DNA of 51,632 nucleotides from an uncultured Gammaproteobacteria bacterium (GTDB taxonomy: Bacteria; Patescibacteriota; Microgenomatia; Daviesbacterales; UBA10151), in NCBI GenBank assembly GCA_964547465.1, contig CAZJNI010000008.1, forward strand, positions 1-51,632, given 5' to 3'. The position numbers are program-made. This document shows, in pieces, positions 24,001 to 30,000 of this stretch. Each line of letters opens with the position of its first letter. Positions within the stretch are counted from its first letter, which is position 1.

Positions 24001-27000
24001 ATCTAGGGCAGGGATTAGTCTCCAATAAAGGTATTAACTTAGGGTTATCTTGCAGAATTCTTACATGCTTTTAATTATCATCTTATTCTATAGTGATACT
24101 ATCTGGGTTGAGCTAGCAACGTAAGTTTAAACTTTATTTGACAAAGGGTGGAACCCATAGTATAATTCGAAATAAACTTTATTAACGAAGTTAACACTTA
24201 AATTATGAGGCTTAATAAACAATATTTTTTAGTTATAAGTTTAATATTTTTGTTCCTGTTAATAGGAGCAGTTAAATTAGTATTAGCAACAGATCAAATT
24301 CCACCTTTACCACCTATTCCAACTGCTCAACCAGGTCCGGCAGGGCCAACAGGTCCGACCGGACCAGCCGGAGCACCCGGGATCCCGGGACAAACTGGAC
24401 CAGCAGGCCCGGCAGGACCAATAGGAGCAACCGGACCTCAAGGACCAGCTGCACCAGCAGTTCCGCAAAATCAAAATACCACTGTTAGTACATCTAACAG
24501 TAACACTAATACCAATGCTAATTTAAGCCTTAATGCCAATTCAAATTCAAATAATAATGTTTCAAATAGTGGTTCAACTTCTGTTGCCTTAGGCGGAGCA
24601 GGAGGTTCTGCTAATGTTAATATCTCCGGAGCAGGTAAGGCTCAAGCTGCAGCTGCTCCTCCTGCTGCTTCTAATACAGTTGTATATACTCAACCAAAAG
24701 TGGCAGGAGTATCTTATGTTAAACAACTGCCAAAAACTGGTTTACCCCTTATTGCCTGGGTAGCTTTAGGTTTTATCCCGGCCGGATTTAAGATAAGAGG
24801 GTTTTCCAAAGTTAAAGAAGAATCTAGCACAAAAGCGCACTATCTTATGGAAGAAAGAGAATTTAAGAAAATATGATAGACAAAATTAAAAATTTAATGT
24901 TTTGGAAAAAATTCAGCAGATTTCTAATGCTTGGTTTATCTTTGATGGTAATACTTTATTTTTTCCAGGTCCAGCCAAATATCCTTGCCCAAAGTACTTT
25001 ACAGGATGCATGTTATAACGATACTGTTACAAACCTTAATCCAAACGGGACTATTTTAGCTGCAGGAACAAAAAGTGTGACTCTTACCTGGAATGCGGCA
25101 GCCCATGCACCCAGTTCTTACTATGTTTCATTCAGAACTACTTCTGATGCTTCTTTATATGATAACTATGTAAATTCTACGTCAGTGACAGTATCAAATT
25201 TACAAGACGGCACAAGTTACAAGTGGGCTGTCAGGCCTTTTTATGGTTCTGCTTGTTCTGGGGGGTTAGCCCAGGCCACTGTATCTGTGGCTTCCGCACA
25301 ACCAACAGCAGGACAACTTACCTGTAATATTTCTCAAAGCCAGCCTATACCACAAACTAATAATTCCTATTTGTATACCTTAAGCGGTGGTTCACCTAAT
25401 GCAGTGAGTAGCTGGGGATGGGATCTGACTAATGATGGTTCAATTGACAGCTATGGTCAGACTATCCAGCAAAATTACTTTGCCAGCAGCACTGCCAGGT
25501 TACATATTACAGATTCATCTGGAAGGTTTGGTGATTGTTATACCAATATTAATCTACCAACATCCGGAACAACTGGAAATATTCCAATCTGTACTATCAC
25601 AGCTTATCCCTCAAACAATGTTTCTGCCGGAACTAATGTAAGTTTTACAGGTAATGCTACAGCTTATAATGGCAAAGCAATTAACAGTTATCAGTGGGAT
25701 TTTGATAATGATGGTGTCTACGATACAGGCGTCAATAACTTTAACACTGCCAATTATACTTTTAATACTCCTCAAACTGTCAGACTTCATGTAATTGATT
25801 CAGGAGGCTTGGGCAATGATTGTACTACTTACATAAATATCGGTAACCAGTATCCGGCAGGCAGCTGTTCAACAGAACCATTTTATTGTCCGGGTGGAGG
25901 AGTAGTTTACAGAAATCCAAATTCAGGATGTAATTTTAATCAATGTCCCGGTTCTGGTACTACTTTTCCTTCTCAACCTGGTCAAATTCCTGTTGGTGTA
26001 ATCCCATCATTCCAGTGTCCTGCCGGAACAAGCGCTCAAAGCCTGGGTAGCGACCAGTCAACTACAGTTTGTGTAGCCAATATAAATGATAACTTTAATG
26101 TCAATTTCAATGCCGATATAAATGATAATATTAACAGTAATTTCTCAAACAGTTGGTCTTCATCTTACGCAACAGGAGGCGGAGCAGGCTCTGCCAACGT
26201 TACCATAACCTGGTAATACTTGAGTACGTTCATATTAACTGAACGTACTTGACAAACTATGAAACCCATAGTATAATACTAAGAGTTAGTATGAATAAAC
26301 AAATTTTTATTTTAATAATTTCACTTTTAACAATCATTTTTGCTGGTTTAAAGCTTGGTGTTACCAGCGCTTCAGCTCAACAAGCTTGTTCTTCTTTTGT
26401 AACTAGCTCTAAATGTGGTCAGCCAAGTTATGATACTTGTAGTGAGGTCAAATATGACGGTAACAGAGCTTACTATGATTGTAAAGCCTCTCAAGATCCT
26501 ATTAGATGTACTGGACAGATTTATTGTGGTTCAGAAGATAAACCTTTTTCAGGAACTTATCCTTCTAATGTTAATAATCAGGATCAGGTCATGGCTCCAA
26601 CCTGTGATTCTGTAAGAACCCAAAATCTTTGTGGTAAAACTATGTATGAAGGTTGTATCTTAAGATATTCCGGCAATGAAGCCTGGTATGATTGTACATC
26701 CCCTCAAAACAGCCAATGTCAGGGATCACAACGCTGTGAAAGTTTGGATAAAACATCAACTCCTGCTCCTGTAACCGGGGGAGGTGCCAACGCTAGCGTA
26801 GATTGTCCGGCTGGTCAACATCATTCAGATTTAAATAATCAAGTTTTAACAAATTGTGTGGCTAATGCCAATGCTAATGATAATTTAAATGTCAATGGTA
26901 ATGATAACAGTAACAACAATAATAATGGTTCAAGTAGCACTGCCACAGCCGTAGCTTATGGTGGAGCAGGGGGTTCAGCTAATGTAAATATTAGCGGACT

Positions 27001-30000
27001 TGGCGGGGGAGGAACCCGTGAAGTTAGAACAGTGGAATATAGAAATGTAGGAGTTGGTACGTCAGCTCCGGTTTATTATGCCGGGGTTAAACAACTCCCA
27101 GCAACTGGTTTACCAGTGCTAGCCTGGACTGCATTAGGCCTTATCCCAACCGGATTTGGAATGAGAAGATTCTCCGGAGTTAAAAAGGAAGCTGAAAAGA
27201 ATCCAAATTATCTTTGGGAAGACAGACAGTTTAAGGTCGGGGATTGACAAAGATAGAGGAGTATGGTTTACTTATAAGGTAAGCCTCAAGAAAGAATTTT
27301 CAATTTTCAATTTTCAATTTTCAAATAATGCCAAGAGTAACAAAATCATTTAAACCAGCTTCACCAATACACCCCTCCGAAGGAGGTAAAATAGAACCTT
27401 CAGTGGAGGGATTTGTGGGAGAGCCTGCATCTTCTGTCATTGCGAGCGAAGCGAAGCAATCTGTTGAAGAGATTGCTTCGTCGCCTTCGGCTCCTCGCAA
27501 TGACGATTATAGTAATAGTGGTTACCGCCCCAGATATGGAAATGGTGGCTATCAAAATGGTGATCGTTACCAGGAGCGTGATGTTCCAACAGAAGAAGTT
27601 TCCGGAATATTGGAAATTATGCCGGAAGGACATGGGTTTCTCCGACCTAAATATATACCATCTGATAGCGATGTATATATTTCAGCCAGCCAAATCAGAA
27701 GATTTGGCCTTCGTCCGGGAGATTTAGTAGATGGAGCAGCCCGTCCTCCCAAAGAAACAGAAAGATATTTTGGACTTCTTCAAGTTAATAAAGTTAACGG
27801 GGAGGACGCAGAAAAATTGGTTGCTCACCTCGGAGGTGAAGCTAAGCAGTCAGCTGGCGTACACCTCCGAGGTGGACGTAGGGTGAAATTCGAAGACTTG
27901 ACTGCCATTTATCCAAATAAACACCTTAAACTGGAAACCGGAAAAACTCCTCTATCCCAGAGAGTCATAGATTTAGTGGCCCCAATTGGTTTTGGTCAGC
28001 GAGGATTGATTGTGTCCCCTCCAAAAGCCGGTAAAACTACCATCTTAAAAGATATTGCTTCCGGAATTACCAAGAATCATCCTGAAGTAATTTTGATGGC
28101 TGTTCTGGTAGGCGAGCGGCCGGAAGAGGTAACTGATTTATCAAGGTCTATCAAAGGGGTGGTTGTTTCCTCCAACTTTGATGAGCCGGCTGAAGAGCAA
28201 ACCGCTGCGGCAGAAATTGCCCTGGAGCGGGCCAAAAGACTGGTGGAGATGGGCAAAGATGTTGTGATTCTACTTGACTCTATAACAAGACTTGGAAGGG
28301 CCTACAATCTGTCTGTTCCGCCATCCGGCAGGACTTTAAGTGGTGGATTCGACCCGATTGCCCTTTATCCTCCCAAACACTTTTTCGGGGCTGCCAGGAA
28401 TTGTGAAGAAGGCGGATCTTTGACCATTATTGGTACAGCCCTGGTTGATACAGGATCCAGGATGGATGATCTAATTTATGAAGAGTTTAAAGGAACAGGT
28501 AATATGGAGCTTCATTTAGTCAGAGGTTTGGCGGAAAGAAGGATTTATCCGGCAATTGATATTGAAAGCTCGGGCACCAGACAGGAACAGCTGCTATTTA
28601 AGGAAGAGTACTACAAACAAATGGTGATTTTAAGAAGGATGATCGGGATTTTGGGGGAGCAGGAAAGAACAGAAATAGTCCTGGAAAGACTGGCCAAGAC
28701 AGAGAGTAATGAAGAATTCCTTAATAATCTTAAGGATGTTAAGTAACTTAAGCTTCTTAAGTTACTTAAGTGACTTAGTGTGATAAAATAACCCCTAATG
28801 AATTCCCTGACAGATGATCTGAAAGCTTTAACTCATGCCTTAATCTGGTACTCAAAGCGCAAGATCAAATACTTTGCCCATCAATTCGAAGGTTTTAAAA
28901 ACTTAGTGAAAGATATTTTAATGACAGGCCGGGGAGTGCACCAAAAAAGGTTTTGGCACGGATCCATAATTGGTTTGACTTCAGTCGGGATCTTAACATC
29001 CGGAATTTTTGGGGGGACCAGCTTAATTTCATCCACCTTTCCAGGTATTGGTGGACCTGATCCCAGATTTGCCCAGACTTTTGAACCTTTTCCAAATGGT
29101 CCGATTATAGCCGGGTTTCAGGATACCCACACGGATATTTCCCAAAAACCCCGTTCGGAAATTATTGAATACAAAGTACAAAGCGGTGATACTGTCTCCT
29201 CAATTGGTCAAAAATTCGGCATCTCGCAAGATACAATAAAATGGGCCAATAATTTAACTTCTGATCATATTAAACCCGGGGACACTTTGAAGATCTTGCC
29301 TGTAAGCGGCGTTTCCGTAATTGTTAAATCAGGAGACAGCCTGGAATCTATTGCTAAAAAATTCTCCGGCGAAGCACAGGCAATTTTGGATTTTCCTTTT
29401 AATGATATTCCGGATGATCTTAGCCTTAAAGTTGGACAGCTTTTGATTATTCCTGATGGAGTTCCGCCTGAAGTTAAAAATCCTCCAAAAAGGCCGCAAC
29501 CGCAATATCTGGCTCAAGGTCCGAAGTCTCCTGCCTTTAGTGCTCCGGGCGGAGCTTCCTTTATCTGGCCTGCCGGAGGCAGTCTTACCCAATATTTCGC
29601 CTGGTATCATCCGGGAATTGATATTGCCAACAGGAGTGCACCGGGGGTGGCTGCAACTGATGGAGGGATTGTGAGGGTGGCAGGATGGCCGGATAATACG
29701 GGTTATGGAAACAGGATAGTTTTGGATCATGGAAATGGTTATACCTCTTTGTATGCACATTTATCTAATATTTATGTATCAGTCGGGGAGAGTGTATCAA
29801 GAGGGCAATTAATAGGTCAGATGGGATCAACCGGAAGATCAACAGGAACTCACTTGCATTTGGAAATTCACTACAAAGGGGTGGCACTAAATCCGCTGGG
29901 AATACTAAAGTAAGTTTGGGGATTTTGGGGTATTTAGGGGGGAGTGGACCAGAGCGGAATCGAACCGCTGATTTCCTCTGTGCGAGAGAGGTGCATTACC

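Follow-up and report, generated by a model that had tools for sequence, protein, structure and literature searches.

The surface nucleator CsgB and the secreted subunit CsgA of curli share a Gly/Asn/Gln/Ser-rich strand-turn-strand motif, which stacks with ladders of Asn and Gln, and the Ser-Asp repeat proteins (Clf/Sdr) and the Ser-rich repeat glycoproteins have an alternating dipeptide run that separates their functional domains from the wall anchor. In the chaplins, the long forms ChpA-C are sortase-anchored and the short forms ChpD-H are secreted; a proposed role of their co-assembly is to attach the layer to the wall (PMC5618241). Amyloid signalling motifs, known from HET-s/NWD2 in fungi and from BASS in bacteria, are short N/Q/G-rich motifs that occur in adjacent genes and have been read as elements of templated, in-register cross-beta pairing (10.1101/2020.01.06.895854); HET-s fibrils are an established case of parallel in-register sheets with ladders of Asn and Gln side chains (PMC7556116). 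The subject of the present work is a locus of three consecutive genes, g1, g2 and g3 (24205-27247, + strand; hereafter the trio), located in a 51,632-nucleotide stretch of contig CAZJNI010000008.1 (the window) from an uncultured groundwater bacterium, a member of Candidatus Daviesbacteria. The three encoded surface proteins carry a common module whose length and composition are matched among the genes of one genome and vary between genomes, a pattern which suggests that they may assemble with each other through it, side by side on the cell wall.

The module comprises xQxTxV, an alternating N-x or S-x stretch, an A-x-A-x segment and the Gly-rich core GG(A/G)(G/A)GSANVxI. An original prediction, made from the window alone, had noted an Asn ladder followed by GG(A/G)(G/A)GSANV(N/T)I in all three proteins; this holds, and alignment with relatives reveals that the shared element is longer than had been described, and begins at an invariant Gln. 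The three copies, located on the + strand at 24472-24624 in g1 (QNTTVSTSNSNTNTNANLSLNANSNSNNNVSNSGSTSVALGGAGGSANVNI, ending GGAGGSANVNI), 26055-26207 in g2 (QSTTVCVANINDNFNVNFNADINDNINSNFSNSWSSSYATGGGAGSANVTI, ending GGGAGSANVTI) and 26840-26992 in g3 (QVLTNCVANANANDNLNVNGNDNSNNNNNGSSSTATAVAYGGAGGSANVNI, ending GGAGGSANVNI), are each 51 residues long and align without gaps. There is one module per protein, and its N-x run is short (approximately 20-30 residues), encoded by DNA that holds microrepeats of 6, 12 and 36 bp. GSANV, N-x runs of at least five and in-frame LPxTG are confined to g1, g2 and g3 in a six-frame regex scan of the 51.6-kb window. It had also been noted that proteins 2 and 3 share CPAG-x(13-14)-CVAN, and the spacing is indeed x14 in g2 and x13 in g3; in the alignment with relatives the second Cys of CPAG...C is module position 6, and this element is conserved in g3 and present in only some g2 orthologues. 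The g2 copy is further distinguished by aromatic or large residues at variable positions, the class means for F/W/Y per module being 3.0 in g2, 0.5 in g1 and 0.8 in g3.

No Pfam or NCBIfam family corresponds to the module, and weak matches to DUF2807 (E 0.045), CsgH (E 0.88) and EbpS (E 0.0016, far under its cut-off) were rejected as compositional. A module profile gave 0 matches in the PDB even at E<=10, and no description of the module, or of sortase substrates of Daviesbacteria, was found in the literature. Searching 1.84 billion representative proteins with the profile (E<=1e-3) returned 15 matches, 14 of them true and all of g1, g2 or g3 class, the 15th being an unrelated repeat protein. 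In relatives of the g2 class the module occupies the very C-terminus, and in those of the anchored classes it lies 71-92 residues ahead of the C-terminal end. Full-length searches recovered 21 relatives of g3 and 4 of g2, the named ones being Candidatus Daviesbacteria, of the Microgenomates within the Candidate Phyla Radiation (CPR). A g3 relative was present in only 2 of 185,579 GTDB species representatives, both at loci already known, in a scan that employed a 6-sequence alignment, a 15-sequence alignment being too divergent; no matches were obtained in the scan of JGI metagenome contigs. The module is undescribed and restricted to a small CPR clade, and it was found only in the linked gene set, at 13 loci, not mainly in single unlinked genes, the distribution that the original prediction had named as speaking against it.

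The closest functional analogue of the trio is offered by the chaplins of Streptomyces (PF03777), where anchored and free paralogues have a short beta-forming domain in common, as g1, g3 and g2 have the module; the analogy is one of layout only. None of the three proteins matches PF03777 (Pfam, E<=1), and whereas the chaplin domain is hydrophobic and holds two Cys, the trio module is rich in Asn, Ser and Gly, occurs once per protein, is joined in each case to large, unrelated N-terminal domains, and forms part of a fixed set of two or three genes whose modules agree in length. With curli the trio has in common the logic of an anchored nucleator and a free subunit, and GGAGGSANV loosely recalls the curlin GxGN(x)A; however, no curlin repeat model of Pfam is matched (the CsgH value of 0.88 is noise), a single module stands in place of five repeats, CsgG/E/F machinery is absent, and the envelope is of monoderm type, with LPxTG anchoring. 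The amyloid signalling motifs are the closest genomic analogue of the module, which, as in the HRAM and BASS cases, is present in two or three adjacent genes (at 13 loci), with length and ladder more alike within than between genomes. Those motifs act inside the cell and connect an NLR receptor with a membrane-targeting cell-death effector, both cytoplasmic, whereas the trio proteins possess signal peptides and surface domains, no NACHT, NB-ARC, NLR, Bell or HeLo-type domain was found in them, and the module measures 29-58 residues as opposed to roughly 20-25 for amyloid signalling motifs. Like the LPXTG collagen-like adhesins Scl1/Scl2 (NF038329/NF038330), g1 combines a signal peptide, a Gly-X-Y repeat and LPxTG, but it scores 23 bits against an NCBIfam cut-off of 325, lacks the N-terminal globular V domain, carries a long conserved tail on its sorting signal, and has orthologues in which collagen is dispensable. 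Lastly, the dipeptide run of g1 and g3 is positioned between functional domains and anchor as in Ser-Asp and Ser-rich stalks, but it covers only the 20-30 residues mentioned above, has a length that is fixed per genome, is followed by the conserved Gly-rich core, and is also carried by the anchorless g2; in addition, the trio is not accompanied by glycosyltransferase or accessory Sec genes dedicated to it, its neighbors being genes for a PIN-TRAM protein, a Tat-signal (twin-arginine) protein, rho and a LysM-M23 peptidase. The module therefore belongs to neither the chaplins, curli nor the amyloid signalling motifs, since it matches no family model, has extracellular partners and occurs singly in each protein.

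The gene set is found at the same locus, before rho, in 12 further contigs. The order g1-g2-g3 directly upstream of rho is shared by the window and loci L001 (GCA_964649615), L004 (CP066688, an 820-kb chromosome), L009, L011, L012, L013, L015, L016 and L017; at L005, g1-g2 is followed by the contig end, and L014 and L018 display a Cys-rich anchored gene, then g2, then rho. The wider order radA, PIN-TRAM protein, Tat-signal protein, g1, g2, g3, rho, LysM-M23 peptidase is common to the window, L001 and L004. Orthologues of g1 (P0013, P0015, P0017 and the g1 of L001, L004, L009, L011, L012, L013, L015 and L016) have a constant architecture of signal peptide, extended proline-rich rod, module and anchor, but the rod itself changes: it is collagen in the window, L001, L005, L012 and L013, polyproline or PxVxN(I/V)P repeats in L004 (true open reading frame, ORF, 6217-6903) and L011, and SPY-type repeats in L009 and L015. 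Collagen is hence not obligatory, the module being kept in the g1 of L004, L009, L011 and L015, and the argument that a collagen helix would need the module for trimerization is weakened. For g2, the claim that the protein stops after the module without an anchor, while proteins 1 and 3 have LPxTG tails, agrees with the sequence and extends to all 13 orthologues: each of them lacks an anchor and ends 0-2 residues past the module, with endings that include ITW, IKW, ISW, INW, ITD, ITE, IQ, IK and IGN. The lack of an anchor is thus conserved and does not reflect truncation. Regarding the assignment of these genomes, the metagenome-assembled genome (MAG) that contains the L001 locus (identical to L007; contig CAZYPW010000005.1) is labelled uncultured Gammaproteobacteria, its protein P0010 is named Candidatus Daviesbacteria, and the locus is syntenic with the Daviesbacteria chromosome; the label is probably a taxonomic error.

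Module length, counted with the anchor Gln as first residue and the closing Ile of the core as last, and given in the order g1/g2/g3, is 51/51/51 in the window, 48/48/48 in each of L001, L012 and L013, 48/48 in L005, 35/35/35 in L004, 38/38/38 in L009, 58/58/58 in L011, 37/37/37 in L015, 29/29 in L014, 35/35 in L018 and 41/41/39 in L016. Length thus ranges from 29 to 58 residues between genomes, and within genomes all copies are equal in 11 of the 12 that can be fully measured, L016 being the exception. The modules of L017 are cut by contig ends, and NTSNSxSQ occurs at positions 21-28 of both its g2 and its g3, in register; L016, L017 and L018 were fetched once the pattern was known, as a prospective test. 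When lengths were shuffled within gene class among the first 10 genomes, the observed 10/10 was never reached in 200,000 trials, nor was the observed 7/7 when each length class was represented by one genome. An alignment of concatenated modules shows that the same blocks, namely a 10-residue N-x block and a 7-residue xATGGxx block, are present or absent across all three genes of a genome. Composition also switches jointly: the Asn ladder is the commonest, but L015 carries a Ser ladder and NNTVGGS in 3/3 copies, L018 a Gln ladder with an identical VTQSQVVNAVGGSS in 2/2 copies, and L014 II(I/L)xNNNPSSSTS...NTNNINI in 2/2 copies. Such co-variation of length and composition among paralogues is what in-register, chain-to-chain pairing predicts, and the maintenance of exactly equal lengths in spite of slippage-prone repeats of 6, 12 and 36 bp argues for selection for matched modules.

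Equal lengths could also be produced by recent gene conversion, an explanation that was rejected for most genomes on the basis of identity, codon sharing, short identical runs and class-specific aromatics. Paralogous modules within a genome are 52-74% identical at the nucleotide level, and where their amino acids are identical, the same codon is employed in a fraction of 0.28-0.80 of cases (mostly 0.3-0.67), the corresponding values being 0.52 for orthologues of different genomes and 0.47 for cross-class pairs between genomes. The longest identical in-register nucleotide run is at most 16 nt in all but two pairs. Within the group of genomes with 48-residue modules, cross-class amino-acid identity within genomes, at approximately 0.61 (an average made by hand of per-pair values), equals the 0.59 measured between them.

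Conservation within the module follows a two-residue period. Ungapped within-genome alignments display in-register identity between paralogues at 189 of 260 odd positions (73%) as opposed to 82 of 254 even positions (32%; Fisher p 3e-20), and in the window trio all three proteins are identical at 18/26 odd versus 4/25 even positions. This strict period, together with a single conserved polar face (Asn, Ser or Gln) and fixed Gly-Gly turns, is the pattern that extended beta strands would give if stacked in register. The reading preferred here, to which a probability of roughly 0.55 is assigned, is that of a parallel, in-register beta assembly between chains which holds the secreted g2 on the anchored g1 and g3. 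The module would be a lineage-specific assembly element that takes up an extended beta conformation in each chain, with conserved Asn and Ser (Gln in some genomes) and Gly-rich turns on one face, and the modules of the three proteins would be joined in a parallel, in-register fashion by beta-sheet hydrogen bonds between chains and by ladders of side chains. Since the module lies at the wall-proximal end of the extracellular part in all three proteins, pairing would bundle them with their N-terminal parts directed outward, potentially exposing the collagen or polyproline rod of g1, the Fn3-PKD-PKD arm of g2 and the tandem Cys-rich domains of g3. Proteins g1 and g3 would be fixed to the wall or membrane through putative sortase processing of their LPxTG signals, and anchorless g2 would be retained non-covalently by its C-terminal module, in either a closed 1:1:1 complex or an open-ended, amyloid-like array. 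The original prediction, in which the module tethers the anchorless subunit to the wall-anchored ones, is thus partly supported: the linked gene set, the conserved anchorlessness of g2 and the exact co-variation of length and composition in the absence of recent conversion provide strong comparative support for co-assembly, a support which does not extend to an amyloid nature or to the collagen-trimerization argument. A bolder and more tentative proposal, for which the odds are clearly below even, would make the module a new hetero-oligomerization domain, a long, single-layer, parallel in-register beta 'zipper' whose strand length and polar ladder (Asn/Ser/Gln) constitute a genome-specific code, and the trio a defined surface organelle of three proteins, made up of a rod, an Fn3/PKD arm and a lectin-like head rich in Cys and borne by the wall of an ultra-small CPR cell, perhaps serving for attachment to surfaces or host cells.

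Several observations weigh against parallel in-register pairing of the modules. The g3 module of L016 is 2 residues shorter than its partners, at its C-terminal end; the genomes are related, so that independent length changes (at least 7 length classes) are fewer than genomes; and some module start anchors were set by eye after the regex had taken an upstream Q. Identical g1-g3 runs of 32 nt in L004 and 25 nt in L016 hint at some conversion, and an older conversion followed by divergence may have occurred, possibly helping to spread length changes. AlphaFold2 monomer models built on orthologue alignments yield, for the module, a predicted local distance difference test score (pLDDT) of 32-40 in g3 and 25-29 in g2; the Cys-rich domains of g3 reach 80-90, with module and tail below 50, and in g2 the Fn3 domain scores approximately 88 and the PKD domains 70-75. 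Such low module values would fit either disorder in isolation or folding upon assembly, and the module may simply be disordered. The segment is, furthermore, of low complexity, and it occupies the usual site of a wall-spanning spacer in Gram-positive surface proteins. No sortase was identified among the window ORFs scanned, a set that does not include three ORFs at 47422-51495, and g2 would be membrane-tethered by itself if its N-terminal hydrophobic helix stays uncleaved.

Many of these points are shared by the explanation that the module is a flexible, low-complexity stalk or wall-spanning spacer next to the anchor, comparable to the Ser-Asp and Ser-rich stalks, whose likeness is kept by occasional conversion among the three neighboring genes, g2 being merely a secreted protein or a decayed paralogue. 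Low complexity with pLDDT below 50, a location immediately preceding the LPxTG signal of g1 and g3, differences in length and composition between genomes, DNA microrepeats and the two identical runs in L004 and L016 are all in line with this idea, as are the N/S/T-rich stretches found ahead of the anchor in P0012, P0016 and P0018, anchored proteins of the same lineage. It nevertheless appears unlikely, since a spacer needs no residue-exact equality of the kind seen in 11/12 fully measurable genomes, most genomes are free of conversion tracts and have synonymous sites as diverged as those between genomes, and the aromatics specific to g2 have not been homogenized. In addition, neither the Gly-rich core nor the period-2 conservation resembles what a free spacer would show, and g2, which has no anchor, keeps its module at the very C-terminus in 13/13 orthologues.

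An exact length match of 29-58-residue segments would not be demanded by enzyme recognition alone either, and it is quite improbable that the module acts as a tag read by a common, co-evolving partner and not by sister modules. Such a partner could be an enzyme that modifies the Asn/Ser ladder, for example a glycosyltransferase, or a chaperone for secretion or assembly, or a polymer of the S-layer or wall to which the module would be bound via strand addition. It is true that a single shared partner would likewise favor similar modules, that the conserved polar residues of one face are possible modification sites, that glycosylation genes (PMT-like, GT4, DegT, carbamoyltransferase) are abundant at 4644-19773 of the window, and that a conserved secreted twin-arginine protein with an invariant G-x-C-[YW] is encoded upstream of the trio in three genomes. 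However, L001 and L004 lack the glycosylation island at the corresponding place, the upstream protein belongs to no assigned family and shows only 18-23% identity from one genome to another, and few of the ladder Asn fall within N-x-S/T sequons. Very little likelihood attaches to the third alternative, a homo-oligomerization (for instance homotrimerization) element in each protein, such as one for registration of the g1 collagen, with no contact among the three, because, although a collagen-like g1 needs a trimerization element, the module directly follows its Gly-X-Y region and the N-terminal parts differ among the three proteins, the four collagen-free g1 orthologues keep the module, and neither the co-variation of length and composition across the three genes of a genome nor the surface retention of anchorless g2 would be explained.

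The protein types named by the original prediction (collagen-like, Fn3/PKD-like and Cys-rich) are confirmed. Gene g1 (24205-24876, +; 223 aa) encodes, in order, a signal peptide, a Gly-X-Y collagen repeat, the module, a 34-residue linker and an LPKTG sorting signal with tail. Its collagen-like rod (24331-24447, +; residues 43-81) matches PF01391 in a Pfam scan with an E of 1.4e-6 and 28.4 bits versus a cut-off of 27.2, and consists of uninterrupted Gly-X-Y repeats, with 11 overlapping G-x-x-G-x-x-G-x-x nonamers, after which the module begins directly. Gene g2 (24873-26216, +; 447 aa), whose start overlaps the stop of g1 (ATGA), codes for a signal peptide of the FWKKFSRFL type, an Fn3 domain (PF00041) and two PKD-like domains (PF18911), both families exceeding their Pfam cut-offs, followed by a Cys-rich segment, CPAG-x14-CVAN, the Asn-x run and the C-terminal module; after GGGAGSANVTI only TW and the stop remain, so that the protein ends two residues beyond the module (…ITW). 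For g3 (+), the mechanical ORF spans 26249-27247, but its TTG at 26249 falls within a promoter (26249-26277), and the real start is therefore most likely ATG 26291, which gives 318 aa. This protein, with 14 Cys, is composed of a signal peptide, two tandem Cys-rich domains with a YDGNRAYYxC motif, the CPAG-x13-CVAN loop, the Asn-x run, the module, a linker, LPATG, a helix and a tail. The Cys-rich domains, located in the N-terminal half (26291-26800), are approximately 65 residues each and follow the pattern C..CGQxSYDxC..YDGNRAYYxCxASQ..C.G.I.C; a Foldseek comparison of the g3 model with the PDB gave cyanovirin-N lectins as top match, which is not significant (E 0.04, probability 0.2, template-modelling (TM) score approximately 0.2) and serves as no more than a lead for these domains.

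The three proteins had been called otherwise unrelated, a description that does not stand: the same specific promoter serves g1 and g3, whose sorting signals are homologous, and in the relative P0006 a g2-type protein is fused to g3-type Cys-rich domains. The sorting signal of g1 (24718-24873, +; LPKTG at 24727-24741) consists of VKQLPKTGLP, a hydrophobic helix, a basic stretch and a tail ending in HYLMEEREFKKI, and that of g3 (27086-27244, +; LPATG at 27095-27109) of VKQLPATGLP, a helix and a conserved tail ending in NYLWEDRQFKVGD. Both contain the elements LPxTG, hydrophobic helix and basic residues (LPKTG-LPLIAWVALGFIPAGF-KIRGFSK... in g1, LPATG-LPVLAWTALGLIPTGF-GMRRFSGVKK... in g3), and their tail is conserved; the curated anchor models (Pfam Gram_pos_anchor and TIGR01167) gave no match at E<=1 in Pfam or NCBIfam. 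Classical sortase signals stop after a few basic residues; here, helix and basic residues are followed by an atypical conserved tail of approximately 20 residues, P-x-[FY]-[IL]-W-E-x-R-x-F-K. Signal and tail also recur in module-free proteins of the lineage, and were seen on P0011, P0012, P0016, P0018, P0020 and P0032-P0047; a profile search with the tail recovered only short fragments and small proteins, and the signal is general in the lineage. This LPxTG-plus-tail element may represent a type of sorting signal peculiar to the lineage, with an additional role in the cytoplasm. At the other end of the proteins, the N-terminal signal (I/L)FW(K/R)KFS(R/K)FLL(V/I)GLS is conserved in g2 orthologues (window 24873-24995) and in several further secreted or anchored proteins of the lineage, namely P0011, P0016, P0018, P0020 and the g1 of L014 and L015, and looks like a lineage-specific type of signal peptide.

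Transcription of the trio is driven from two closely similar sites. The promoter of the g1-g2 operon (24138-24166, +; TTGACAAAGGGTGGAACCCATAGTATAAT) has perfect -35 and -10 elements separated by a 17-nt spacer, with a 12/12 match to the consensus, and that of g3 (26249-26277, +; TTGACAAACTATGAAACCCATAGTATAAT) is of sigma-70 type, also 12/12 with a 17-nt spacer. The extended form, TTGACAAA-N4-GRAACCCATAGTATAAT, occurs in the window only at these two sites (0 expected by chance), and the core ACCCATAGTATAAT is also located upstream of g1 or g3 in L001, L005, L012 and L013. With the same promoter before g1-g2 and before g3, the trio makes up two transcription units under one shared, dedicated and strong promoter type, and this co-expression counts in favor of pairing among the three products. 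Between g2 and the g3 promoter lies a perfect 10-bp inverted repeat, AGTACGTTCA-N7-TGAACGTACT (26223-26249, +), which has no T-run and was not called in the terminator scan; it may be a terminator or an operator. Upstream of g1, the 1.1 kb that separate it from the Tat-signal gene (23113-24204) contain no convincing ORF, Rfam family or tRNA, and a similar gap of 0.8-0.9 kb is found in L001 and L004.

The Tat-signal protein just upstream of the trio (window 22183-23112, +; L001 4068-5048; L004 4429-5400) carries a twin-arginine-like signal (SRRDFL) and the invariant G-x-C-[YW], has no relative in Pfam, NCBIfam or the PDB, and could be a secreted Cys-dependent enzyme. Downstream, rho (27328-28746, +) has, ahead of its RNA-binding domain, an N-terminal extension of approximately 90 low-complexity residues in which Ser, Gly, Tyr, Arg and Asn abound, and this extension is conserved in L014 and L018. 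Between radA and a LytR_C gene, a block of envelope and glycan genes covers approximately 15 kb (4644-19773) and encodes a PMT-like mannosyltransferase, a MetW-like methyltransferase, two GT4 enzymes, a DegT aminotransferase, a carbamoyltransferase, three SGNH/AlgX-like proteins, and TPR and DUF6541 membrane proteins; since radA stands almost directly before the LytR_C or PIN gene in L001 and L004, the block is an insertion or variable island. Further away, a giant ORF of 2272 aa (33100-39918, -), with no Pfam match at E<=1e-3, adjoins a MerR-family regulator (32554-32952), and L004 has a 3497-aa gene beside MerR in the equivalent place. An AbiEii-type nucleotidyltransferase toxin (PF08843) and an upstream 195-aa ORF without Pfam family (41150-42425, -) form a probable type IV toxin-antitoxin pair. 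At its start (1-363) the window contains the final part of a 23S rRNA gene, together with a 5S rRNA gene, and two adjacent tRNA-Ala genes, with CGC and GGC anticodons, follow the LysM-M23 gene (29944-30091, -).

CPR bacteria are uncultured, have tiny genomes and probably rely on contact with other cells, and to our knowledge very little is known of the surface structures of members such as Daviesbacteria. The trio represents a compact, strongly promoted surface locus with a testable assembly rule, that of equal-length, ladder-matched modules. The feature that sets it apart from known co-assembly of anchored and free proteins via a shared beta module is the residue-exact co-variation of length among partner genes. 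If pairing is true, the 'anchored nucleator plus free subunit' logic known from chaplins and curli would have been invented independently in this locus. The locus would then also be a rare natural case of strand length co-evolving between partner proteins, of interest to the design of orthogonal beta-sheet hetero-assemblies as well as to the reading of amyloid-like interaction motifs from genomes.

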